From positions 1-49,961 of the forward strand of contig JAJYLI010000002.1 of assembly GCA_021787855.1 (NCBI GenBank): 49,961 bases of DNA, read 5' to 3'. Both the position numbers and the translations under genes were made by a program. This DNA comes from a bacterium (lineage in GTDB: Bacteria; Gemmatimonadota; Gemmatimonadetes; Gemmatimonadales; JACORV01). Shown here in pieces: positions 15,944 through 32,775 of the stretch; the first letter of the stretch is position 1, and every line of letters begins with the position of its first letter. The notes beneath the pieces are model-generated. The model was not told the DNA's origin and did no database searches. It was given only the letters and a program-made list of their open reading frames with translations.

Positions 15944-16887
15944 GCCGCGGCCGCGCCGGCCGCCGGCCAGGTCCGCGCGACGCCGTCCTCCAGCTCGGCC
16001 ATGGGCCGCGTGTAGCCCGCAGCCCGGAGCGCCGTGAGGTCCGCCTCCGTGAAGCTCTGGTACCTGGCCGCCAGGCCGGGCGGGAAGGGGATGTAGGTCA
16101 CCCGGCCGCCGCTCTTCATCCCGCCCAGGATCCGCGCGATGTCGTTGAAGCTCCGGCTCTTGCCGGTGCCGACGTTGTAGATGCCGACGCGGGCCGGCGC
16201 GCGGAGGAAGTGCAGGTTGACGGCGGCGACGTCCTCCACCCACACGAAGTCGCGGCGCTGCTCGCCGGCGCCGTAGCCGCCCGAGCCCTCGAACAGCCGC
16301 ATCTCGCCCCGCGACGCGAGCTGACCCGCGAGCTGCCAGACCATCGAGGCCATCCGCCCTTTGTGCGCCTCGCCCGCGCCGTACACGTTGTAGTAGCGCA
16401 ACCCCACGACCGTGCTCGTGGCCGCGGCCGCCACGCGGCGGACGTAGCGGTCGAACAGCGCCTTCGAGAAGGCGTACAGGTTGAGCGGCTCCTCGTTGGC
16501 CGGAGCCTCGGTGCACCGGCCGCGGTTCCCGTACACCGAGGCGCTGGAGGCGTACACGAAGGGGATGCCGCGCTCCAGGGCGAAGCGCAGCAGCGCCTTG
16601 GAGTAGGCGTAGTTGACCTGCATGACGTACGCGCCGTCGGTGGCCGTGGTATCGGTGCACGCGCCCTGGTGGAGGATGCCGCTGATCCCGTCCACCTTCC
16701 CGGCCTCGAGGGCGGCCAGGAACGCGTCCCGCTCGAGGTAGTCGGCGATCCCGGCCGTCCTCAGGTTGGCCCACTTGTCGCCGCCGCCCAGGTGGTCCAC
16801 GACCAGGATGTCGGTGAAGCCCTCCCGGTTGAGCGCCGCGACGAGATTGCTCCCCACGAACCCGGCCCCGCCCGTCACCACGAGCAT
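15925..16887 (-). CDS. hldD: ADP-L-glycero-D-manno-heptose 6-epimerase
   Basis: MLVVTGGAGFVGSNLVAALNREGFTDILVVDHL...GDKWANL matches the HldD N-terminus, and the SDR catalytic YAFSK is present. The internal ATG at 16887 is preferred over the ORF start at 16944. Confidence 0.9.
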   Translation of the reverse strand: MLVVTGGAGFVGSNLVAALNREGFTDILVVDHLGGGDKWANLRTAGIADYLERDAFLAALEAGKVDGISGILHQGACTDTTATDGAYVMQVNYAYSKALLRFALERGIPFVYASSASVYGNRGRCTEAPANEEPLNLYAFSKALFDRYVRRVAAAATSTVVGLRYYNVYGAGEAHKGRMASMVWQLAGQLASRGEMRLFEGSGGYGAGEQRRDFVWVEDVAAVNLHFLRAPARVGIYNVGTGKSRSFNDIARILGGMKSGGRVTYIPFPPGLAARYQSFTEADLTALRAAGYTRPMAELEDGVARTWPAAGAAAAQVPNK

Positions 16888-16933
16888 GCAGTCCCCGTTG
16901 TCTGGTGTGGAGGCTAATTTGCCTAGGACGCCC

Positions 16934-18487
16934 ATGTCACGCACCTCCCCGCCCGGCGCCCGGGCGCTCCGCGCCCCCGGGGCGATCCTGCTCGTCTCCT
17001 GCTACGAGCTGGGCCACCAGCCCCTGGGCCTGGCCTTCCCGCTGGCGTTCCTGGAGCGGGCCGGCTTCCGGCCGTCCACCGTGGACCTGGCGGTGAGCCG
17101 GCTGGACGCCGAAGCCGTGCGGCGGGCCCGGCTGGTCGCGATCTCGGTTCCGATGCACACGGCGCTCCGCATCGGCGTGGAAGCCGCCGCGGAGATCCGG
17201 CGCCTCAACTCCGGCTGCACCATCTGCTTCTACGGCCTCTACGCCGCGCTCAACCGCGCGTACCTGCTCGCGGGCGCAGCGGGGGGGGGCGGGGGGGAGG
17301 GCGGGGGCGGGCGCGGGACCGCCGACGTCGTGCTGGCGGGAGAGATCGAGGAGCCGCTGGTGGCCCTGGCTGAGCGGCTGGATCGCGGGGAGGACGCGGC
17401 GGGCGGGCGGGCGCCGGGAACGCGCCCGGCGGAGGACGCGCCGGCCGCGGACGCCCGCGCGGTGACGCGCCTCGCGCGCCAGGACTTCCCCGTGCCCAGC
17501 CGCGGCGCGCTCCCCGTCCTGGGCCGCTACGCCGCCCTGGATCGGGACGGCGAGCGCCGGGTCGCCGGGGTCACCGAGGCCAGCCGGGGATGCCTGCACC
17601 TCTGCCGCCACTGCCCCATCCCGCCCGTGTACGGCGGCCGCTTCTTCGTCGTCCCGGCGGCGGTCGTGCTGGAGGACGTGCGCCGCCAGGCGGCGGCGGG
17701 CGCGCGCCACATCACCTTCGCCGACCCGGACTTCCTGAACGGCCCGACCCACGCGCTCCGGATCGTGGAGGCCCTGCACGCGGAGCTTCCGGATCTGACC
17801 TTCGACTTCACGGCCAAGGTGGAACACCTGCTCCGCCACCGCGGGCTCCTGCCGCGATTCGCCCGCGCCGGCTGCGCGTTCATCGTCACCGCCGTCGAGT
17901 CGCTGAGCGACGAAGTCCTGCGGAAGCTCGACAAGGGCCACAGCCGCGCGGATGCGATGGGCGCCCTGGACGCCGTCCGCGGGGCGGGCATGACGTTGCG
18001 CCCCTCGTTCGTGCCGTTCACGCCCTGGACCACCCTGGGCGACTACATCGAGCTGGTGGACTGGCTCGAGGCGGCGGACCTCGTTCCCTGCGTGGAGCCC
18101 GTGCAGCTGGCCATCCGGCTGCTCGTGCCGCCGGGCTCGGGCCTGCTGGAGTCCGGGGACCTGACGCCTTACCTGAGGGGCCTGGACGCCGCCGCGTTCA
18201 CGTGGCGCTGGGAGCATCCGGATCCGCGGATGGAGCGGCTGCACGCGCAGGTGAGCGACATCGTACACCGCGCCAGCCACGCCGGCACGCCGGCGGCGGA
18301 GGTGCACGCCGCCGTGCGCCGGGCGGCCCGCGAGGCGCGCGGAGACGCCGTACGGCCGCCCGAGGCGGCCGCCACGCTCTCCGAGCGGCGGCCGGTGCCG
18401 CCCCGGCTCACCGAGCCGTGGTTCTGCTGAGCGGAGCCCACCGCGGACCAGTTGGGTCCGGCGATCGCGCCGCCCGGCGCCATCTGA
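16934..18487 (+). CDS. B12-binding-domain radical SAM protein with CUAEP tail; TGA 18428-18430 read as selenocysteine
   Basis: ATG at 16934 (the ORF part upstream is antisense to hldD). Radical SAM motif CLHLCRHC. The ORF caller stops at ...LTEPWFC-TGA. Read-through gives U-AEPTADQLGPAIAPPGAI and a stop at 18485-18487. A SECIS-like hairpin sits at 18442-18463. Confidence 0.8.
17281..17317 (+). repeat. G-tract G9-C-G7-A-G3-C-G5-C-G3-CGC-G3 inside the radical SAM gene
   Basis: Read directly from the sequence. It encodes AGGGGGEGGGGRG. Confidence 0.9.
18442..18463 (+). promoter_or_regulatory. putative bacterial SECIS hairpin
   Basis: Begins 11 nt after UGA 18428-18430. Stem CGGACC/GGUCCG (18444-18449 / 18455-18460) with apical loop AGUUG, extended by 2 bp across a one-nucleotide G bulge. 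Confidence 0.6.
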
Positions 18488-18519
18488 CGGGTCACGGGCC
18501 GGCCTGTCCCCGAACGACG

Positions 18520-18554
18520 AGGCGCCGTCCCCGCGCGACGCGGAGACGGCGCCT
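18520..18554. terminator. GC-rich hairpin between convergent genes (possible bidirectional terminator)
   Basis: AGGCGCCGTCCCCGCG-cga-CGCGGAGACGGCGCCT forms a 16-position stem with one mismatch and a 3-nt loop. It is followed by TT on the + strand only, so there is no strong U-tract. Confidence 0.5.
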
Positions 18555-18590
18555 TGCCGGAACGCGGCCTCGAGCGGCCGGCCGGAGCGG

Positions 18591-19628
18591 TCAGGAGCCG
18601 GCGGTCTGTCCCGCGGCCGGAGCGGCGATGTAGCTCGCCGGCACCTCGCCGGTCAGCGCGTTCAGGTACGCCACGATCCGGTTCACGTCCTCGGGCGACA
18701 GCGTCTTGCCGAGCTGGTGCTTCGCCATCAGGGCGACGGCCTGTGGCAGCGTCGCCACCGAGCCGTTGTGGAAGTACGGCGCCGTGCGCGCGACGTTGCG
18801 CAGCATCGGGACCTTGAACACCAGCGTGTCGGACGCCTCGTGCGTGATGGCCGCGCGGCCGATGTCCGACTTGTCGGGCCACGGCTCCACCGCGCCGAGC
18901 TTCTGGTACATCCCGCCGCCCACCAGCATCCCGTTGTGGCAGGCCTGGCAGCCGGTCGCGACGAAGGTGTTGAAGCCTATCCGCTCCTCGGGGGTGAGCG
19001 CCGTGGTGTCACCGTCCAGGAACCGGTCCCACGCACCCGGGGTCACGAGCTTGCGCTCGAACGCGCCGATCGCCAGCCCCACGTTGTCGTACGTCATGGG
19101 GTCCCTCGCGTCGGGGAACGCCGCGCGGAACGCCGCACGGTAGGCCGGGACCGCCTTGAGCCGCGCGATCACGGCCGCGGCGCTGGGCATCCCCATCTCG
19201 ACCGGGTTCAGCACCGGACCCTTGGCCTGCTCCTCGACCGTGGCGGCGCGCCCGTCCCAGAATTGCGCGATCTGGCCCGCCGCGTTGTACACGGTGGGCG
19301 AGTTGCGCCCGCCGAGCTGCCCCTTGGTGCCCACGCTGAACCGGCGGCCGTCCACGCCGTACGCCGCGAGGTTGTGGCAGGTGTTGCACGATTCGTTGTT
19401 GTTGAGCGAGAGCCGGGTGTCGTAGTACAGCGTCCGGCCGAGATTCACCTTCGCGTCGGTCAGCGGATTGGCCGGCGACTCCAGCGCCGCCGCCAGGGGC
19501 GAAAAGGCCGCCAGCGACGCCTGATCCACCTTCGCGCTCGGCCCACGCTGGCACGCCGGCACGAGTACCGCCACGAGGGCGGCCGAACAGAGGACCGTGG
19601 AGCGGCGGAGCACGCGACGCGACGACAT
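18591..19628 (-). CDS. di-heme cytochrome c peroxidase (CCP/MauG family), lipoprotein
   Basis: Internal ATG at 19628 preceded by GGGAGG. Lipobox LVPAC. Heme motifs CNTCH and CQACH, plus GGRNSPTVYNA, FWDGRA and PYFHNGS. Confidence 0.92.
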   Translation of the reverse strand: MSSRRVLRRSTVLCSAALVAVLVPACQRGPSAKVDQASLAAFSPLAAALESPANPLTDAKVNLGRTLYYDTRLSLNNNESCNTCHNLAAYGVDGRRFSVGTKGQLGGRNSPTVYNAAGQIAQFWDGRAATVEEQAKGPVLNPVEMGMPSAAAVIARLKAVPAYRAAFRAAFPDARDPMTYDNVGLAIGAFERKLVTPGAWDRFLDGDTTALTPEERIGFNTFVATGCQACHNGMLVGGGMYQKLGAVEPWPDKSDIGRAAITHEASDTLVFKVPMLRNVARTAPYFHNGSVATLPQAVALMAKHQLGKTLSPEDVNRIVAYLNALTGEVPASYIAAPAAGQTAGS

Positions 19629-19768
19629 GGAGCCTCCCGAGTGGTTGCTCGACAATAGGCCCGGGCGGCGCGCCCCGCAACGTTGGAGAGACCCGGATTT
19701 CCGGCGCAGACACTCGGCTTTCGGCACCCCGCTCGCCATTCGCGGGCGGCCGGGTGCGGCGCGGCGGC

Positions 19769-20575
19769 TCAGCGCTCGAGCACGAACCGGAGCGCCTGGG
19801 CGAAGACCCGAAGCGGGGCGGGGCCGTGGCCCAGGCGCGGGATCACCTCGAAGCGGTGCGGCACGCCCCAGCGCTGGAGCTCGTCCGCGGCGGCCGTGGC
19901 CATGCGGCGGCGCGTGCCGATGTCGCGGCTGCCCATGGTGAGGAAGAAGCGCGTGCCGCGGCGATCGAGGTCGCCGGCGCCGTCGGGCGTCGGGCGGTAG
20001 CTCGCGCGGCTGGCCATGACGATGGCGCCGTGCAGCCGGTCCGGGTTGCGCAGGGTGATGGCCCATGCGAGGTCGCCGCCTAGGGAGAAGCCGGCCAGGA
20101 CCAGACGCGAGCGATCAATGCGATAGTGGTCGGCGGCGGCGGCGAGATCCGCGAGCACCCGGCGCTCGTAGCGCTCGATGGTGCCGGTCCACGCCGCCTC
20201 GGTGCGGTAATCCGACGCGCGGCCGCGGCCGCGGGCGAGGATCAGGAGGAAGCCGGGACCCGATCCTTCGCGCGGAAACAGGTAAGGCCACAGCGCCTCG
20301 AGCTGGCGCTGCGGCGGCTCGCGGTACAGCGCGCCGAGCCCGGCCTGGGCCAGATAGATCTGCAGGATGGCCTCGGCCGTGCTGCCCGTGGGCGGCAGCA
20401 GCTCGACCACGGGATACGCGCGGCGCGAATCGTAGTCGGGCGGGAGCACGACCACGCCGGCCGCTTCCGGCGCGGGCGCCAGGCGTTCCGGATGGGGCGC
20501 GCACGCCGTGGCCAGGAGGGCGGCCGCGGCCAGCGCCGGAACCGCGCTCCCTGCGCGCCGGCGGAGCGTCATCAC
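19769..20575 (-). CDS. alpha/beta-hydrolase esterase-like lipoprotein
   Basis: 268 aa. Lipobox LLATAC and nucleophile elbow GFSLGG. Confidence 0.7.
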   Translation of the reverse strand: MMTLRRRAGSAVPALAAAALLATACAPHPERLAPAPEAAGVVVLPPDYDSRRAYPVVELLPPTGSTAEAILQIYLAQAGLGALYREPPQRQLEALWPYLFPREGSGPGFLLILARGRGRASDYRTEAAWTGTIERYERRVLADLAAAADHYRIDRSRLVLAGFSLGGDLAWAITLRNPDRLHGAIVMASRASYRPTPDGAGDLDRRGTRFFLTMGSRDIGTRRRMATAAADELQRWGVPHRFEVIPRLGHGPAPLRVFAQALRFVLER

Positions 20576-21738: not shown

Positions 21739-22182
21739 TCAGTAGAGCTGCCCGTCGGGCCCCCGCCACCGTCCGCGGCCGAGGCTCTCGAAGACCAGCA
21801 CCCCCACGACGTCCCGCTGGTCTCCCCGCATCACGTGCACCCGGGTGCAATCGTCGAGGGAGCTCCCGGCCGCCGGAAGGCCGGCCGCGTCGTACCGCGG
21901 CGGGCGATAGGCGTGGGCCGACAGCCCACCTCCGTAGCAGGCGTCCCCGAGGAACTGGATCTCGGCGTCGTAGCGCAGCGTGACGAGCGTGGCGCCGAGC
22001 AGGGTCGAGCGCTGGCGTCCCGTCGCGCGGAACCGCACCAGCCGCACGAGACCGTGGCCCTCCTGTCCCACTTCGCGGCCGAGCACGCGCTCGGCGTCTG
22101 CGGCATCCGGATGTGCGCGCGCGCAACCGCTCCCCGCCGCCACGGCGGCGGCGAGCAGCCAGGGAGACAGCCGCGGGCGCAT
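21739..22182 (-). CDS. hypothetical lipoprotein (last gene of the cytochrome c operon)
   Basis: The internal ATG at 22182 overlaps the upstream stop by 1 nt (TGATG). Lipobox AAGSGC. Confidence 0.6.
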   Translation of the reverse strand: MRPRLSPWLLAAAVAAGSGCARAHPDAADAERVLGREVGQEGHGLVRLVRFRATGRQRSTLLGATLVTLRYDAEIQFLGDACYGGGLSAHAYRPPRYDAAGLPAAGSSLDDCTRVHVMRGDQRDVVGVLVFESLGRGRWRGPDGQLY

Positions 22183-22856
22183 CAGCGCCGCACCACCGCG
22201 GAGACGGTCTGCAGGTAGCCGAGGATCTGCGACGCGTCGGCCCGGCTGATCTGCTGCATCTTCATGCGCTGCATGTTCTCCGTCATCCGCAGCACCACCA
22301 CCGGCCAGTCGGGGGGCGAGTGCATCCGGGGATCGGGCAGCACGTGGCAGCGCGAGCACGCGGTGGCGAACAGATCGCGGCCCACGCCGGGCGGCAGCGA
22401 GCCGGCGACCGGCAGCGCGTGGCCTTGCAGGTAGGCGAGGAGCTCGGCCCGTTCCGCCGTGCTCGGAACACGCAGCCCCAGGTCTCCGGCCATCATGTCA
22501 ATCCGTACCCACATGCGGCGGGTCACCGCCGGCCAGTCCATCGCTCCGTGCATCGCCGGCGACGGCAGGGCGTGGCACTGCGTACAGTACTGCTGCAGCA
22601 CCCTGGCTCCGGGCGCAGCCGGATCGGGCAGGCTCTCCGCCGCGATGCCGGGCGGCAGGGCGATGGTGGCCGCTTCGAGCAGCCGCTGCCGTCGCACCGC
22701 CAGCGGGGCGGAAGGGGAAGGGGAGGCGGGGGGTGCGGGCGGGGGGAGCGTAGCGGCCTCGGCCGTGCCGGGCGATGCCGGCGCCCGCCCGGTGGGGGTG
22801 GGTGTTCCGCAGCCAACCAGCACGACGACCGCCGTCAGCAGCGCCCGCACGCTCAT
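22182..22856 (-). CDS. di-heme c-type cytochrome lipoprotein (two atypical repeated heme modules)
   Basis: Lipobox VLVGC followed by a Pro/Ala-rich linker. Two CXXCH motifs (CTQCH, CSRCH), each followed by LP-x-P-x-MH-x3-DWP-x-V-x2-RM. Confidence 0.8.
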   Translation of the reverse strand: MSVRALLTAVVVLVGCGTPTPTGRAPASPGTAEAATLPPPAPPASPSPSAPLAVRRQRLLEAATIALPPGIAAESLPDPAAPGARVLQQYCTQCHALPSPAMHGAMDWPAVTRRMWVRIDMMAGDLGLRVPSTAERAELLAYLQGHALPVAGSLPPGVGRDLFATACSRCHVLPDPRMHSPPDWPVVVLRMTENMQRMKMQQISRADASQILGYLQTVSAVVRR

Positions 22857-22875
22857 GGCATCCTCCCCGCGACGA

Positions 22876-23640
22876 CTATCGGCCGGCGGTCAGGACCGGC
22901 AAGTAGGCGATCACATCCCAGAGCTGCTGGTCCCCGAACAGCCGGCCCCATTCAGGCATGAGACCGCGGTGCCGGGTGGGTCCACGCGTCTTGAGCAAGG
23001 CGAACACCTGCTCGGCCTGCCGCGGCAGGTCGAGCGCCCGCAGGTCCGCAGGCGGGGGCGACTGCTCCGCCGCGAGCGCGCCGTCTCCGGCGCCCCGCAG
23101 GCCGTGGCAGTGCACGCAGTATGTGCCGTAAATGAGACGGCCCGCCGCCGGGTTGCCGCGCGCGCCGGGCTCGGCGAAGGTCGCGATGTAGGCGATGGCG
23201 GCGCGAAGCTCGGGCTCGCGCAGGCCGTGCCAGGCGGCCCCCTCCACCGCGGTCGCACCGGCGGCCGGCGGCGCGCGCCGCACCCGCCGCACCAGGGCCC
23301 CGACCGAACTGCCCCCCACCGCCCGCGCCAGGTCCGGCAGGTCCTCGCGGAAGCCCCGGGCGAGCGGGCCGTCGCCGTGGCCGTACCACCCGTGGCAGCT
23401 CCAGCAGTAGGTGTCGTATACCTCCCGCCCGCGCCGCTCGCCGGCCGTGAGCTGCGGGGCCGCCACCGGCGGCAGGGAGTCCTCGGCCGCAAGCGGCGCC
23501 TCAGGGCGAACGGCCGCCGCGGCGTTCTCCCCGCCGCCCGCGGCCGAAGGCGGTGCCTCGGCGGCACACGCCCCCAACCCCAGCGCGGCGCTCCACAGCG
23601 CGAGGCGCCAGGCCGCCGCGAGTCCGCGCGAGCCGCTCAC
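22876..23640 (-). CDS. di-heme class I c-type cytochrome
   Basis: GTG at 23640 lies 17 nt after the upstream stop (the ORF start at 23721 would overlap). Signal peptide present. Heme motifs CWSCHGWYGHGDG and CVHCHGLRGAGDG. Confidence 0.8.
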   Translation of the reverse strand: MSGSRGLAAAWRLALWSAALGLGACAAEAPPSAAGGGENAAAAVRPEAPLAAEDSLPPVAAPQLTAGERRGREVYDTYCWSCHGWYGHGDGPLARGFREDLPDLARAVGGSSVGALVRRVRRAPPAAGATAVEGAAWHGLREPELRAAIAYIATFAEPGARGNPAAGRLIYGTYCVHCHGLRGAGDGALAAEQSPPPADLRALDLPRQAEQVFALLKTRGPTRHRGLMPEWGRLFGDQQLWDVIAYLPVLTAGR

Positions 23641-23656
23641 GCCGGCGCGCCCCCGC

Positions 23657-23992
23657 TCAGCGATGCAGCGTCTTGATGTAGGCCGCGACGGAGTCCACCT
23701 GCGCCGGCGAGAGCTGTCCACTGAAGGCGGGCATGCTCCGGCGGCCGTGGCGGATCACCTGGCGCACGGCGGAGTCGGTCGTCGCCAGCCGCTTGGCCGG
23801 GTTGGTGAAATCAATCGGCCGCGGGTTCAAGGCCATGGCCATCGGGCCGTTGCCGCGCCCCTCCGCCCCGTGGCACATGGCGCACCGGACGTGGAAGACC
23901 GCCGCCCCGGTGACCTCCTGCGCTCTGACGACGCCCGGGGCTCCGACCGCGAGCACCGCCACGGCGGCGCAGCACCACAGTCCTGTCCGCAT
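23657..23992 (-). CDS. mono-heme class I c-type cytochrome
   Basis: ATG at 23992 preceded by GGGAGGAACAGG. Signal peptide ...VVRAQE. Motifs CAMCHGAEGRGNG and distal MPAF. Confidence 0.85.
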   Translation of the reverse strand: MRTGLWCCAAVAVLAVGAPGVVRAQEVTGAAVFHVRCAMCHGAEGRGNGPMAMALNPRPIDFTNPAKRLATTDSAVRQVIRHGRRSMPAFSGQLSPAQVDSVAAYIKTLHR

Positions 23993-27789: not shown

Positions 27790-28293
27790 GTGAGGGCGTG
27801 GTTGACGGGTGGCGCGGCGGGAATCGCGATCGGGATCGCCGTGGCGGTCACCGCGGCGCGGTGGGCGGGCGCGGTGACGCAGCCCGTCGCCTTCGACCAC
27901 CGGAAGCACACCCAGGATCTGAAGCTCGACTGCGCGCTGTGTCACCCGAACGTCGCGGTCGGGCAGCATCCCGGGCTGCCGTCGGTGGAGATCTGCGCGA
28001 TGTGCCACCAGACCAGGCTGGGGACGTCCAGCGCGTCGGCACAGGTGACCGGGTACGTCACGAGCGGGCGGCCGCTGGTCTTCCGCAAGCTGTTCGGCCT
28101 GCCGCCGTACGTGTTCTTCACGCACCGCCGGCACGTGGCGATCGCGAAGCTGCCGTGCGCCGACTGCCACGGCGACATCGCCCTGACCACCACGCCGCCG
28201 CGCCGCCCTCTGGTCACGATCACGATGAACTTCTGTCTCCACTGTCACCTCAAGATGCATCAGAGCACCGACTGCATCGCCTGCCACCGCTGA
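27790..28293 (+). CDS. membrane-anchored pentaheme cytochrome c (c3/c7-class; ActA/QrcA-like)
   Basis: GGAGGG lies 8 nt upstream of the GTG. N-terminal TM segment. Five CXXCH motifs (CALCH, CAMCH, CADCH, CLHCH, CIACH) plus distal His motifs (FDHRKH, FTHRRH). Confidence 0.9.
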   Translation: MRAWLTGGAAGIAIGIAVAVTAARWAGAVTQPVAFDHRKHTQDLKLDCALCHPNVAVGQHPGLPSVEICAMCHQTRLGTSSASAQVTGYVTSGRPLVFRKLFGLPPYVFFTHRRHVAIAKLPCADCHGDIALTTTPPRRPLVTITMNFCLHCHLKMHQSTDCIACHR

Positions 28294-28301
28294 GGCCGCG
28301 C

Positions 28302-30713
28302 GTGAGCTTCGATCGTCGCCAGTTCCTGTTCGCCCTCGGCGGCGGCGTCGTAGCCGGGGCCGGTCTGTCCGAGATCGCGGCCGGCCTGGCCGCGCCCACC
28401 GGCCTGCTCGGTCCCGTGCCCGTGCCGCATCCGGCCTGGGCCCCGGGGGTGGAGCAGCGCGTCGCTTCCGCGTGCCTCGTCTGCCCGTCGCGCTGCGGCA
28501 TCCGCGGCCGGATCGTGGACGGGCGCCTGGTCCGGATTGACGGCAACCCGCTGCACCCCCTGAGCCAGGGGGGCCTCTGCCCGCGGGGCGCCGCGGGGGT
28601 CCAGATGCAGTACTCCCCCGGCCGGCTGACGGCGCCGCTGCTGCGGGCGGGGCCGCGGGGCGCGGGCCGGTGGCGCCCGCTGTCGTGGGATGGCGCGGTG
28701 AGCCTGCTGGTGGAGCGGCTGGGGCGGCTGCGCGCGGCGGGCGGGCCGCAGGCGGCGGCGGTGCTCGCCGGCTACTGCGCCGGCTCGATGGAGGACCTGT
28801 GGCGGCAGTTCCTCCGGGCCTACGGCTCGGCGAACTACGCCGCGGACGCGTACGCGGACGGCGGCGACGCGGTCATGGCCGCCATGCACGGCGTCGCGCG
28901 GCGCCCGGCCTACGACCTCGACCGCGCCACGCTGGTCCTGTCGTTCGGCGCGCCGCTGTTCGAGGCGTGGTGGTCCCCGGTGCAGGCGGCGGTCGCGTAC
29001 GGACGCACCGAGCGCATCCGGGAGGGGGCACCGCGCCCGCGCTTCGTCCAGGTGGATACCCGGTTCTCCCGCACCGCGGCGCGGTCGTCCGAGTGGATCG
29101 GCGTGCGGCCGCGGACCCACGCGATCCTGGCGCTGGGCATCGCCTACGTGCTGATCCGCGAGGCGCTGGTGGACGCCGATTTCCTCGCGGCGCACGTGTC
29201 CGGCTACGAGGACTGGAGCGACGCCGCGGGCGGTCACGAGGGCTACCGCACGGCCGTGCTGCGCCGCTATCGCACCGAGGAAGTCTCCGCCGCCACCGGC
29301 GTCAGCGTGGAGCGGATCGTCGGGCTGGCGCGGGCCTTCGCGGCGGGCCCGCGGTCGCTGGCCATCTGCGGCCCCGATGTCACGCTGGCCCCCGACGGCC
29401 TGCTCGCGGGGCTGGCCGTGCACAGTCTCAATGTGCTGGTGGGGAGCGTCAGCCGCCCGGGCGGCGTGCTGGTGGGCGAGGATCCGCCGCTCGCGCCGAT
29501 CGCCGCGGTCACGCTGGACGACGTCGCGCGGCGCGGCCTGGCCCACGGGCCCCTGGCGGCGGGCGCGCCGTTCGGGGAGGGAGGGGGGGAAACCGGGGCC
29601 GAGCGAGGCGCCGCGCTCGCCGAGGCCATCGCCGCGCGGAGCCCGGGGAGCGTACAGGCGCTGCTGCTCTACTACGCCAACCCGCTCGCCTCCGCCACCC
29701 GCCCGGAGCGCTGGGCCGCCGCGCTCGCGCGCGTGCCGCTGGTGGTGAGCTTCTCGCCGTTCCACGACGAGACCACGCGCCAGGCGGACCTGATCATCCC
29801 GGACCTCCTGCCGTACGAGCGCTGGCAGGACGCGCCGGCGCCGGCCTCGTACCCCTACCCGGCGTGGGCCGTCGTGCGCCCGCTGGTGGCGCCGCCCACC
29901 GGCGCGCTCGGCACCGCGGACGTGCTGCTCGCGGTGGCCAACCGCCTGGGCGGCACCGTGGCCGCGAGCCTGCCTCATCCCGACATGCACGCGCTGCTCA
30001 AGGCCCGCGCCCGCGGCCTGTTCGCGGCGCGGCGCGGGATGCCGTTCGGCGACGCCTTCGCCACCGAGTACCAGCGCCAGATGGAGGAGCGCGGCTGGTG
30101 GCTGGGCGGCGGCGCGCCGGCCGGGGGCGGGGGCGGCTTCGACGCCTTCTGGACCCGCGTGGTCGAAAGCGGCGGCTGGGCGGACCCGTTCTACGACTAC
30201 ACGGACGGCGGCCGGATGCGCCGCACGCCGAGCGGCAGGATCGAGCTGATGCCCGCCGACGTGCGGCGCCGCCTCCAGCCGGACGCCGGCCCGTACGACT
30301 TCATCGCGCGCGCCGAGCCGCCCGCGCCGGCCGGATACCCGCTGCGCCTTCAGCCGTACCGCGTCTCCACGCTCGCGTCGGGCACCATCGGGCTCGAGCC
30401 GTGGCTCGCCGAGCGGCCGGCGCTGTTCCCCGACGTGTACTGGGTACCGTGGGTGGAGGTGAACCCCGCCACGGCCCGCTCCCTCGGCCTCGAGGACGGC
30501 GCGCCGGCCTGGGTGACTTCGGCCCACGGCCGCTACCGGGCCCGGGTCAAGCACTTCCCCGGCGCCGCCCGCGACGTGGTGAACGCGCCGTACGGCCTGC
30601 GGCACCCGGACGGCGAGCTGGCCAATCCGCTCCAGCTCCTCGACGGGGCGGCCGATCCGCTCACGGGGCTGTCCTCGTGGGCCACCACGTTCGTCCACCT
30701 CGAGCGGGCCTGA
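28302..30713 (+). CDS. Tat-exported molybdopterin-oxidoreductase-family (MopB) large subunit
   Basis: GTG at 28302. Tat motif DRRQFLF. FS0 motif C-x2-C-x3-C-x27-C (CLVCPSRCG...GGLCPRG). About 800 aa. The upstream part of ORF 27798..30713 overlaps the pentaheme gene out of frame. Confidence 0.88.
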   Translation: MSFDRRQFLFALGGGVVAGAGLSEIAAGLAAPTGLLGPVPVPHPAWAPGVEQRVASACLVCPSRCGIRGRIVDGRLVRIDGNPLHPLSQGGLCPRGAAGVQMQYSPGRLTAPLLRAGPRGAGRWRPLSWDGAVSLLVERLGRLRAAGGPQAAAVLAGYCAGSMEDLWRQFLRAYGSANYAADAYADGGDAVMAAMHGVARRPAYDLDRATLVLSFGAPLFEAWWSPVQAAVAYGRTERIREGAPRPRFVQVDTRFSRTAARSSEWIGVRPRTHAILALGIAYVLIREALVDADFLAAHVSGYEDWSDAAGGHEGYRTAVLRRYRTEEVSAATGVSVERIVGLARAFAAGPRSLAICGPDVTLAPDGLLAGLAVHSLNVLVGSVSRPGGVLVGEDPPLAPIAAVTLDDVARRGLAHGPLAAGAPFGEGGGETGAERGAALAEAIAARSPGSVQALLLYYANPLASATRPERWAAALARVPLVVSFSPFHDETTRQADLIIPDLLPYERWQDAPAPASYPYPAWAVVRPLVAPPTGALGTADVLLAVANRLGGTVAASLPHPDMHALLKARARGLFAARRGMPFGDAFATEYQRQMEERGWWLGGGAPAGGGGGFDAFWTRVVESGGWADPFYDYTDGGRMRRTPSGRIELMPADVRRRLQPDAGPYDFIARAEPPAPAGYPLRLQPYRVSTLASGTIGLEPWLAERPALFPDVYWVPWVEVNPATARSLGLEDGAPAWVTSAHGRYRARVKHFPGAARDVVNAPYGLRHPDGELANPLQLLDGAADPLTGLSSWATTFVHLERA

Positions 30714-30734
30714 GCCCGGGGAGGAAAGCCGCCG

Positions 30735-31418
30735 ATGCCACGCTGGGGGATGGTGATTGACCTCGACCGCTGCACCGGCTGCGCCGCGTGCGAGGTCGCC
30801 TGCAAGAGCGAGAACAACATCGCCACGGTGCGGCCCGATCAGGCCGACATGGGGCGCGCCATGAGCTGGATGAAGGTGGAGACGAAGATCGAGGGCGACT
30901 TCCCCGACACCCGCCTCAGCTTCGCGCCCCGGCCGTGCATGCAGTGCGACAACCCCCCGTGCGTGAAGGTCTGCCCCGTGTCGGCGACCTACCTGAGCCC
31001 GGAGGGCATCGTCGGCCAGATCTACCCGCGCTGCATCGGCTGCCGGTACTGCGCCAACGCCTGCCCCTACACCGCCAAGTACTTCAACTGGTTCGCCCCC
31101 GCGTGGCCCGACAGCGAGCGCGCGCACCTGGACCCCGATGTCTCCGTCCGGCCCAGGGGTGTCATGGAGAAGTGCACGTTCTGCGACCACCGGCTCCAGC
31201 AGGCGAAGGAGAACGCGCGCGCCGCGGGCCGGCCCCTGCGCGAATCGGACTTCCAGCCGGCCTGCGCGGACGCGTGCCCCACGCGCGCCATCGTGTTCGG
31301 GGACCTGGACAACCCGGCGCACCGGGTGAGCACGCTCAAGAACGACCCGCGCGCGACGCGCCTCATGGAATCGCTGGGTACCGAGCCCAAGGTCTACTAC
31401 CTCACCCAGAAGGCCTGA
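30735..31418 (+). CDS. 4Fe-4S ferredoxin-type subunit (NrfC/PsrB/QrcC/ActB2-like)
   Basis: GGAGG upstream. Motifs MVIDLDRCTGCAACEVACKSEN, CMQCDNPPCVKVCP, CIGCRYCANACP, CTFCDHR and CADACP. Confidence 0.92.
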   Translation: MPRWGMVIDLDRCTGCAACEVACKSENNIATVRPDQADMGRAMSWMKVETKIEGDFPDTRLSFAPRPCMQCDNPPCVKVCPVSATYLSPEGIVGQIYPRCIGCRYCANACPYTAKYFNWFAPAWPDSERAHLDPDVSVRPRGVMEKCTFCDHRLQQAKENARAAGRPLRESDFQPACADACPTRAIVFGDLDNPAHRVSTLKNDPRATRLMESLGTEPKVYYLTQKA

Positions 31419-31419
31419 C

Positions 31420-32775
31420 GTGGACGACGCCGAAACCAAGCTCCGCGCGCTCCCCGAGGACGCCCGCACCCTGCTGCGGCCGCTGATCCACACGACCTGG
31501 CGGTTCTATCTCGCCGCCAGCCTGCTGGGCGCCGTGACCCTGTGGGGCATCGGCGCCTACGTCCTGCAGTTCCGCCACGGCCTGGGCGAGACCGGCCTCA
31601 ACCGGCCGGAGTACTGGGGCATCTACATCATTGATTTCGTCTTCTTCATCGGCATCAGCCACGCCGGGACGCTGATCAGCGCCATCCTCAGGATCAGCAA
31701 GGCGGAGTGGCGCCGCGCGATCACCCGCTCCGCCGAGTTCATCACCGTGCTGGTGATCGGCTTCGGGGCCATCCAGCCCATCGTGGACCTCGGGCGCCCC
31801 GACCGGCTGCTGAACATCTTCGCCCACGCGCACCTGCGCTCGCCGCTGCTGTGGGACGTCATGAGCATCTGCTTCTACCTGACCGCCAGCACGATCTACC
31901 TCTACCTGCCGATGCTGCCCGACCTGGCCATCATCCGGGACGCCGAGATCAAGGCGCCGCGGTTCTACCGCTTCCTGGCGGCCGGCTACCGCGACACGCC
32001 GGAGCAGCGGCGGCGGCTGGAGAAGGTGATCGGCGTCCTGGCCATCGTGGTGATCCCCATCGCCGTCTCGGTGCACACGGTGATCGGGTGGATCTTCGCG
32101 ATGACCCTGCGACCGATGTGGCACTCGACCATCTTCGGCCCGTACTTCGTGGTCGGCGCCATCTACTCCGGCATCGCGGCGCTGCTGGTGGCCATGGTCA
32201 TCCTGCGCCGCGTCTATCACCTCGAGCGCTACTTCAAGCCGGTGCACTTCGACTACATGGGCCGGCTGCTGCTGCTGTTCAGCCTGCTGTGGCTGTACTT
32301 CACGTTCGCCGAGTACCTCACGGCCTTCTACGGCAGCGAGCCCGCCGAGATGCGCACGTTCTGGGCGCGCATCTCGGGGCCGTTCGCCGTGCCGTTCTGG
32401 CTGATGGCCTTCTGCTGCTTCGTCCTGCCCTTCGCCCTGATGTGCCGGAAGGCGATGCGCGCGCCCACCGGCACCCTGATCGCGGGGATCGCGGTGGTGA
32501 TCGGCATGTGGCTGGAGCGGTTCAACATCGTGGTGCCGACCTCGGTGAACCCGCGGTTCGACCTCGAGCCGGTGGCCCACTACTTCCCCTCGGGGGTGGA
32601 GCTGTCCATCCTGGCCGCCACGTTCAGCGGGTTCATCCTGCTGTACATGGTCGCCACGAAGTTCTTCCCGATCATCTCCATCTGGGAGATCCGCGAGGGG
32701 CGGGAGGTGTCGGTGCGCGAGGTGGCCGAGCGCGTGGCCGACTACCTGCCGACCGAGTCCGCGGAGGCGGCCTGA
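31420..32775 (+). CDS. NrfD/PsrC-family quinone-interacting membrane subunit (long ActC/QrcD-like form)
   Basis: 451 aa and polytopic. The motif WGIYIIDFVFFIGISHAGTLISAILRISKAEWRR is typical of the NrfD family. Confidence 0.9.
   Translation: MDDAETKLRALPEDARTLLRPLIHTTWRFYLAASLLGAVTLWGIGAYVLQFRHGLGETGLNRPEYWGIYIIDFVFFIGISHAGTLISAILRISKAEWRRAITRSAEFITVLVIGFGAIQPIVDLGRPDRLLNIFAHAHLRSPLLWDVMSICFYLTASTIYLYLPMLPDLAIIRDAEIKAPRFYRFLAAGYRDTPEQRRRLEKVIGVLAIVVIPIAVSVHTVIGWIFAMTLRPMWHSTIFGPYFVVGAIYSGIAALLVAMVILRRVYHLERYFKPVHFDYMGRLLLLFSLLWLYFTFAEYLTAFYGSEPAEMRTFWARISGPFAVPFWLMAFCCFVLPFALMCRKAMRAPTGTLIAGIAVVIGMWLERFNIVVPTSVNPRFDLEPVAHYFPSGVELSILAATFSGFILLYMVATKFFPIISIWEIREGREVSVREVAERVADYLPTESAEAA

Follow-up and report, generated by a model that had tools for sequence, protein, structure and literature searches.

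An in-frame UGA in a Gemmatimonadales radical SAM gene as a probable selenocysteine codon of the CUAEP/CCAEP-tail family

Is the TGA at which gene callers end a radical S-adenosylmethionine (SAM) gene of a Gemmatimonadales bacterium a stop codon, or does it encode selenocysteine (Sec)? The gene lies on the forward strand of a 49,961-nucleotide (nt) stretch of DNA (contig JAJYLI010000002.1 of GenBank assembly GCA_021787855.1, positions 1 to 49,961), to which we refer as the window. The mechanical open reading frame (ORF; 16766..18430, +) terminates at TGA 18428-18430. Translated from the ATG at 16934, which was also chosen as the start of gene P0001 on contig k141_1808985 of ENA metagenome assembly ERZ27233565, a 90-kb sequence that is 99.6% identical to the window over 5.5 kb, it yields 498 residues and ends in RRPVPPRLTEPWFC, i.e. 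...PRLTEPWFC, before the UGA. A sequence-only reading of the same DNA had noted this ORF end directly after ...LTEPWFC and an open frame beyond it, and translation confirms both: read-through past the UGA gives AEPTADQLGPAIAPPGAI, and the next stop is the TGA at 18485-18487.

We conclude, with a probability of roughly 0.9, that this UGA is decoded as Sec and that the product of the gene at 16934-18487 (+) is a radical SAM selenoprotein of 517 residues belonging to NCBIfam NF040546. The observations that carry this conclusion are membership of the family, alternation of Sec and Cys at the codon among homologues, a reading frame that stays conserved past the UGA, and a hairpin that covaries and is found only in the Sec-type genes. 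Most called genes in the window end in TGA, so the code in use is the standard one, with no reassignment of this codon; if the UGA is read as Sec, the gene caller has removed 19 residues from the enzyme. What the window adds is one more member of a curated selenoprotein family of unknown function, and not a new kind of system.

Family membership and the residue at the UGA codon

The 517-residue product, with Sec entered as Cys, was searched against the NCBIfam profiles and matched NF040546 (CUAEP/CCAEP-tail radical SAM (seleno)protein) at 654.3 bits (E 9.7e-197, cutoff 500), the family that the sequence-only reading had named. The match is full length, pairing protein residues 18-508 with model positions 1-467 of 468, and it extends nine residues beyond the Sec codon. 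The C-terminal C-(U/C)-A-E-P tail by which the family is recognised is present (...PRLTEPWFC-UGA-AEPTADQL...). The Pfam domain Radical_SAM (PF04055) scored 48.7 bits against a cutoff of 29.5, and the CxxxCxxC motif that had been picked out by eye, CLHLCRHC, is confirmed at 17591-17614, with C220, C224 and C227 invariant in the family alignment. The earlier description of the N-terminal domain as B12-binding-like draws its support mainly from the predicted fold, as discussed below; in Pfam, B12-binding (PF02310) reached 20.3 bits and stayed below its cutoff of 32.1.

NF040546 has been listed as an uncharacterised protein with a rare Cys-Sec dipeptide (Haft 2022 preprint, bioRxiv 10.1101/2022.07.06.499078). 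That preprint was the sole mention of the family in our literature searches, which returned no functional characterisation of it, and the family is absent from the main text of a 2026 review of prokaryotic selenoproteomes.

We scanned one genome per species, found a relative in at least 597 genomes, and took the best 80 loci for comparison. An alignment of homologues, which the sequence-only reading had proposed as a check of the UGA and its tail, has either UGA or Cys at the site: the homologous codon is TGA in 60 of these species-representative loci, TGC in 15 and TGT in five. It is followed in frame by AEPTxxQ[L/F] in nearly all of the 80 (the few exceptions read AEPL, SEPT, AEPS or TEPT), and the motif downstream of TGA is the motif found downstream of Cys-Cys in the Cys forms. 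Among the closest 120 database proteins, about 85 stop exactly at ...PRLTEPWFC and about 35 run on as ...WFCCAEPTxxQ[L/F].... The peptide after the TGA is kept in Gemmatimonadota, Methylomirabilota, Acidobacteriota, Planctomycetota, Poribacteria, Chloroflexota and others; a peptide conserved across a 'stop' in so many phyla is, we consider, enough to exclude both a true stop and a sporadic nonsense mutation. The Cys forms include all 14 Nitrospirota-labelled loci, together with a Nitrospira-like locus labelled Enterobacteriaceae (L032).

The family also has a cultured carrier. Thermomicrobium roseum DSM 5159 has a member on its megaplasmid NC_011961.1 (L081, 7926-9460); its RefSeq coding sequence likewise ends at the Cys, and AEPLEDPSGP... 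and a hairpin GGACCC-GUC-GGGUCC come after. The T. roseum gene is flanked by genes for a pyridoxal-phosphate-dependent aminotransferase and a major facilitator superfamily (MFS) transporter.

The hairpin downstream of the UGA

The sequence-only reading had drawn a hairpin at 18442-18463 and likened it to a bacterial selenocysteine insertion sequence (SECIS). Folding reproduces it in every detail, with a 5' arm CGGACC at 18444-18449, a loop AGUUG at 18450-18454 and a 3' arm GGUCCG at 18455-18460. An optional 2-bp extension, which begins 11 nt past the UGA, pairs C and G at 18442-18443 with C and G at 18462-18463 over the bulged G18461. The minimum free energy (MFE) is -12.8 kcal/mol and the loop lies 19 nt from the UGA. 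Published criteria for bacterial SECIS elements (bSECIS) are a loop of 3-9 nt, an upper stem of 4-16 bp, a G at loop position 1 or 2 with G or U after it, a spacing of 16-37 nt between UGA and loop, and an MFE of at most -7.5 kcal/mol (PMC13188914). The window hairpin satisfies all of them, with G then U at loop positions 2-3 and a 6-bp stem. It shares with the E. coli fdhF type of bacterial SECIS its place in the coding region just past the UGA, a small loop with G-U and a stable upper stem, and differs from known bacterial SECIS elements in having a family-specific sequence without an Rfam match and, across the CUAEP family, two structural registers.

At 74% GC the fold of a single sequence is not significant on its own, and it is the comparison between species that raises this hairpin far above chance. 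In an ungapped, UGA-anchored alignment, five or more contiguous pairs at one fixed offset occur in 56 of 61 Sec genes and in none of 20 Cys genes, of which none has more than three. Two registers account for the pairing: a 6-bp stem with a 5-nt loop AGUUN in 45 loci, the window included, and a 7-bp stem with a 4-nt loop AGUU in 15 loci with 'QLAL' tails. Covariation was analysed in 43 of the 45 loci of the first register, where 95.6% of cells are paired (79% when shuffled) and compensatory changes occur at five of the six stem pairs, with 53 double-change cells against 16.3 expected. None of 500 shuffles matched the observed covariation, and no slid register came close. Folding energies over nt +9 to +36 point the same way, with medians of -12.0 kcal/mol for Sec genes and -3.25 kcal/mol for Cys genes (p = 2e-10 by Mann-Whitney test) and a value of -12.8 kcal/mol for the window gene. 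The peptide motif is retained in Cys genes that lack the pairing, so the stem does not arise as a by-product of protein coding. The identification as a SECIS thus stands, on the restriction of the hairpin to UGA genes, its covariation and its agreement with the published bSECIS criteria. Among the 20 genes of the Cys form (within L005-L068), three do fold at or below -7.5 kcal/mol at the SECIS stretch, and these may be decaying SECIS relics after replacement of Sec by Cys.

We propose that UGA 18428-18430 acts as a Sec codon rather than as a stop. The hairpin at 18444-18460 of the mRNA would serve as a bacterial SECIS that recruits SelB with Sec-tRNA(Sec) to the ribosome, as in the established bacterial mechanism; selenocysteine would be placed at position 499, and termination would come 18 codons on. 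Ordinary gene callers take UGA as a stop, and the reported protein is therefore cut at Cys498.

Several results weigh against this proposal. Against shuffled sequences, the energy of the window hairpin is at chance level for DNA of 74% GC (z = -0.38). Rfam returned no SECIS family at gathering thresholds over the whole window, nor at a permissive E-value over 18380-18560, and our literature searches found no protein-level evidence for the CUAEP family. In agreement with the sequence-only reading, neither selA, selB and selD (among the called genes) nor tRNA-Sec is seen in the 50-kb window, which has no tRNA genes at all; nor did any tRNA-Sec turn up near the gene when the window and 60 Sec-type loci were scanned. 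In the cultured Gemmatimonadales species Gemmatirosa kalamazoonensis, a tRNA-SeC (anticodon UCA), selD and a convergent selB stand next to one another (L085, 8873-12449, on plasmid 2, NZ_CP007130.1, a 1.04-Mb replicon), so the Sec trait is present in the order, which supports, indirectly only, our inference that the source organism has SelA, SelB, SelD and tRNA-Sec. A search for selD in plasmids gave 168 matches, and T. roseum was not among the 40 matches listed.

The absence of Sec machinery from the window would also fit a decaying relic, that is, a Sec gene in a genome stripped of that machinery, or a recent TGC-to-TGA nonsense mutation, with a truncated and perhaps inactive protein as the outcome. 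We regard this as very unlikely. The SECIS hairpin is intact (6 bp plus the extension), the 18-codon tail ORF is open, with a GC content at third codon positions (GC3) of 0.94, and the same TGA, hairpin and tail are present in the strain represented by the 99.6%-identical ENA contig. The nearest relatives of the window gene, in the Gemmatimonadales metagenome-assembled genomes L001 and L002 (65-68% identity), are both TGA forms with the hairpin, and Sec decoders exist in the order. Least credible of all is a genuine stop, with the protein ending at Cys498 and the tail and hairpin untranslated, e.g. as a transcript-stabilising or terminator hairpin: callers do terminate there in the window, the ENA contig and the RefSeq record of T. 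roseum, and the hairpin alone is not significant against shuffles, but AEPTxxQ[L/F] persists in frame past the TGA in many phyla and equals the motif after Cys in the TGC/TGT genes, the NF040546 match runs beyond the UGA, and the hairpin is confined to TGA genes and has no U-run, with no terminator or promoter found in a scan around the gene.

Table 1. Features of the radical SAM gene in the window, with the loci of other genomes that carry the operon described in the text
Feature	Position	Strand	Basis
Radical SAM selenoprotein (predicted), Met1-Cys498	16934..18427	+	translation; GC3 0.94; NF040546 654 bits; Radical_SAM 48.7 bits; portion reported by gene callers
Sec499 codon (UGA), probable	18428..18430	+	TGA at 60/80 and TGC/TGT at 20/80 loci; frame kept beyond; NF040546 match spans codon
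Tail codons Ala500-Ile517 (AEPTADQLGPAIAPPGAI) and probable true stop TGA 18485-18487	18431..18487	+	translation; motif conserved in Sec and Cys homologues; GC3 0.94
Radical SAM cluster motif CLHLCRHC, C220-x3-C224-x2-C227	17591..17614	+	sequence; invariant in family alignment
N-terminal Rossmann-like ('B12-binding-like') domain, residues ~20-112	16991..17269	+	sub-threshold Pfam; predicted fold; contains Cys23
Bacterial SECIS hairpin	18444..18460	+	MFE fold; presence in Sec genes only; covariation; bSECIS criteria
Operon loci (other genomes)	L007, L012, L017-L019, L022, L026, L030, L034, L037, L042-L045, L049, L061, L064-L066, L070, others		several phyla

Relationship to ArsL and possible chemistry

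What, then, might the enzyme do? Its second-best NCBIfam match is ArsL (NF040542; 271.4 bits, model positions 1-407 of 423), and the next family scores 44 bits. A Bacillus cereus protein of the ArsL family, with an RCCLKC tail, is 35% identical over 426 aa (E 2e-81). Judged by sequence, the CUAEP family is a sister of the ArsL family and not part of it. ArsL cleaves the C-gamma-S bond of SAM to give methylthioadenosine and a 3-amino-3-carboxypropyl (ACP) species, which is transferred to As(III); its C-terminal RCCLKC motif binds As(III), and removal of the motif abolishes the product, not SAM cleavage. Besides ArsL, just one other enzyme is known to generate an ACP radical or organometallic species from SAM.

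The two families share the catalytic body, a vicinal Cys-Cys(Sec) pair on the C-terminal tail and, in some loci, a nearby ATP-grasp ligase of the BacD/DdaF-like class. They differ in the number of chalcogen ligands on the tail (two in CUAEP proteins, three in ArsL) and in context, as searches with B. cereus ars-island proteins found no arsenic-resistance genes around the CUAEP loci. The B. cereus family member ends in ...FKRCCLKC, a motif that the window protein lacks. Two further cysteines set the families apart: C23 and C314 are invariant in the CUAEP family and absent from ArsL, and at the position of Cys23, which lies in the loop SCYELGHQP and is invariant across the family alignments, ArsL proteins have Asn.

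An AlphaFold2 model of a natural Cys homologue has a confident body (predicted local distance difference test, pLDDT, 90.6). Its best structural matches are AprD4 (6fd2), OxsB (5ul2-4) and TsrM (6wte), with template modelling (TM) scores of 0.63-0.68, and common to all of them and the model is a Rossmann-like N-terminal domain followed by a partial TIM barrel. A PDB sequence search gave remote B12-type radical SAM enzymes only. Identities to AprD4, OxsB and TsrM are just 14-20% and the B12-binding score is sub-threshold, and nothing found here speaks for cobalamin use. The Cys-Sec dipeptide of the tail occurs also in SAO-locus proteins, some HgcA, MerT variants and the GCUG tail of thioredoxin reductase. 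The CUAEP pair resembles the last of these in lying near the C-terminus, but fold and catalytic domain are unrelated, and no metal-handling genes are nearby. The CU motif is rare and has been tied to heavy-metal or organometallic chemistry (Haft, bioRxiv 10.1101/2022.07.06.499078).

To compare neighbourhoods, we called genes crudely in the DNA around the 80 loci and grouped them by BLAST. The recurrent neighbours are Nfu/NifU (28 loci), an ATP-grasp ligase (30), DUF169 (11), an Atg22-like MFS protein (eight) and a divergent CDGSH protein (seven); most of them share the strand of the radical SAM gene, and their commonest place is directly downstream of it. The ligase has an LAL_C2 domain, and its best named relatives are BacD and DdaF. 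In several phyla these genes form a conserved same-strand operon in the order CUAEP radical SAM, Nfu/NifU, sometimes DUF169, and BacD/DdaF-like ATP-grasp L-amino-acid ligase, to which an Atg22-like MFS exporter is added in some loci and a divergent CDGSH Fe-S protein in Methylomirabilota. The B. cereus RCCLKC-tail gene itself stands in an arsenic island (plasmid pAH820_272, 243227-256435; L082) with ArsR, MIP channel, GNAT, ACR3, ArsC, ArsD and ArsA genes. The ATP-grasp ligase of that island is of the same broad class as those adjacent to CUAEP genes (25% identity, E 3e-28).

As the catalytic body is the sister of that of ArsL, we propose that the most likely reaction is a reductive cleavage of SAM at the [4Fe-4S] cluster of the enzyme, and the bond broken may be C-gamma-S, as in ArsL. 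On its flexible tail, the Cys498-Sec499 pair would then bind a soft atom, much as the RCCLKC motif of ArsL binds As(III), or would serve the active site as a redox or nucleophilic arm. This ArsL-like function is drawn by analogy and is tentative, the odds being rather against it than for it. Both the protein and its surroundings provide counter-evidence. The ArsL score of 271.4 bits does not reach that family's cutoff of 450. The WFC[U/C]AEPT tail follows an extra linker of about 50 residues, whereas RCCLKC lies at the very end of ArsL, and the modelled tail is only moderately confident (pLDDT 49-69). Searches of the window by tblastn with Nfu, ATP-grasp, DUF169 and CDGSH proteins found none, and homologues of the B. 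cereus ars island number zero among 974 neighbour proteins of 81 loci (arsM was not a query). A role in arsenic metabolism, considered as a candidate, accordingly has no support from context.

An alternative that we hold to be possible, though doubtful, is canonical 5'-deoxyadenosyl radical chemistry in which the Cys-Sec tail is a redox arm, forming a selenenylsulfide in the way of the thioredoxin reductase GCUG tail or donating a hydrogen atom from the selenol to quench a product radical, and not a holder of a soft-atom substrate. The CxxxCxxC motif and the class-B-like fold shared with AprD4, OxsB and TsrM are typical of 5'-deoxyadenosyl radical enzymes, and thioredoxin reductase is an established case of a redox tail with vicinal Cys and Sec. 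The lack of an arsenic or metal-resistance gene context and the recurrence of Fe-S and redox partners (Nfu, CDGSH and a bacilliredoxin-like protein) also suit such chemistry. It has to contend with the fact that the nearest characterised relative by far is ArsL (271 vs 44 bits), a C-gamma-S cleaver with a substrate-binding tail. A distinctly improbable reading is that Cys23, Cys314, Cys498 and Sec499 jointly ligate an auxiliary Fe-S cluster or metal centre that is consumed or remodelled in turnover; it would explain Nfu/NifU as the most frequent immediate neighbour (28/80 loci) and the restriction of invariant C23 and C314 to the CUAEP family, and Nfu-type proteins do rebuild sacrificial clusters in lipoyl synthase, but a vicinal Cys-Cys pair seldom ligates one cluster and the ArsL tail binds none.

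The window gene in its surroundings, and what the family may make

The closest Gemmatimonadales relatives, like the window, are without the operon. No partner gene accompanies the window gene, which has on one side a divergent gene for a heptose epimerase and on the other a convergent one for a MauG/MbnH-like di-haem peroxidase; a DUF5916 protein is also encoded nearby. The peroxidase gene (18591-20066, -; MbnH/MauG-like di-haem cytochrome c peroxidase, CCP_MauG, E 3e-53) is found in the near-identical ENA contig as well; it is not a conserved neighbour of the CUAEP family. Between the two convergent genes lies a GC-rich inverted repeat at 18521-18553 (GGCGCCGTC...GACGGCGCC, inner CCGCG/CGCGG) with no U-run, which may be a bidirectional terminator-like hairpin. 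A sub-threshold Rfam match to Guanidine-III (20.2 vs 36 bits) overlaps this repeat, downstream of the gene, and is probably due to chance.

The window protein is some 45-60 residues longer than most NF040546 members, owing to two low-complexity insertions. One of these is a G-rich tract inside the gene, GCGGGGGGGGGCGGGGGGGAGGGCGGGGGCGGGCGCGGG at 17278-17320, which codes for GGGGGEGGGGRG and is present neither in homologues nor in ArsL. The 99.6%-identical ENA contig is shorter by 12 nt exactly at this tract, which marks it as an indel hot spot, and from its sequence the tract could form a G-quadruplex.

We also scanned the window for other selenoprotein genes, as in-frame TGA codons followed by coding-like sequence, and obtained only neighbouring genes that share one frame. 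Elsewhere in the window, three same-strand genes at 27798-32775 resemble QrcB/ActB (molybdopterin family), QrcC/DsrO (Fe-S) and an NrfD/DsrP-like membrane subunit; by sequence they look like an alternative-complex-III or Qrc-type quinone-interacting module. Genes for c-type cytochromes lie at 22182-23721 on the strand opposite to these three.

For the window gene, the hidden part is an annotation artefact and the outcome is a correct re-annotation. For the family, the consequence is broader. The ORF track, the near-identical ENA contig and the RefSeq record of T. roseum all share the truncation, so a catalytically interesting residue is missing from most database entries of a family that occurs in at least 597 species-representative genomes and is the closest relative of ArsL. 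What is added here is proof of the SECIS by comparison between species, the placement of the family as a sister of ArsL, the conserved operon of Nfu, DUF169, ATP-grasp ligase and exporter, and a cultured host, T. roseum, whose genome is complete and which would allow a test of Sec insertion.

Reasoning by analogy, the CUAEP enzyme may act as a transferase in the manner of ArsL, building an unusual amino acid on a soft atom that its Cys-Sec tail holds; in many phyla the product would then be ligated and exported. Carried further, into what we consider an unlikely but consequential scenario, the CUAEP/CCAEP family would be a second and far more widespread branch of the non-canonical radical SAM enzymes of ArsL type, in which the ACP group of SAM is transferred to Se, S or a metalloid on the Cys-Sec tail together with Cys23 and Cys314. 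The resulting unusual amino acid would be joined to another amino acid by the BacD-like ligase and exported by the Atg22-type MFS protein in Acidobacteriota, Methylomirabilota, Nitrospirota and Planctomycetota. If this were true, common soil and freshwater bacteria would make an undiscovered class of organo-element dipeptide metabolites.

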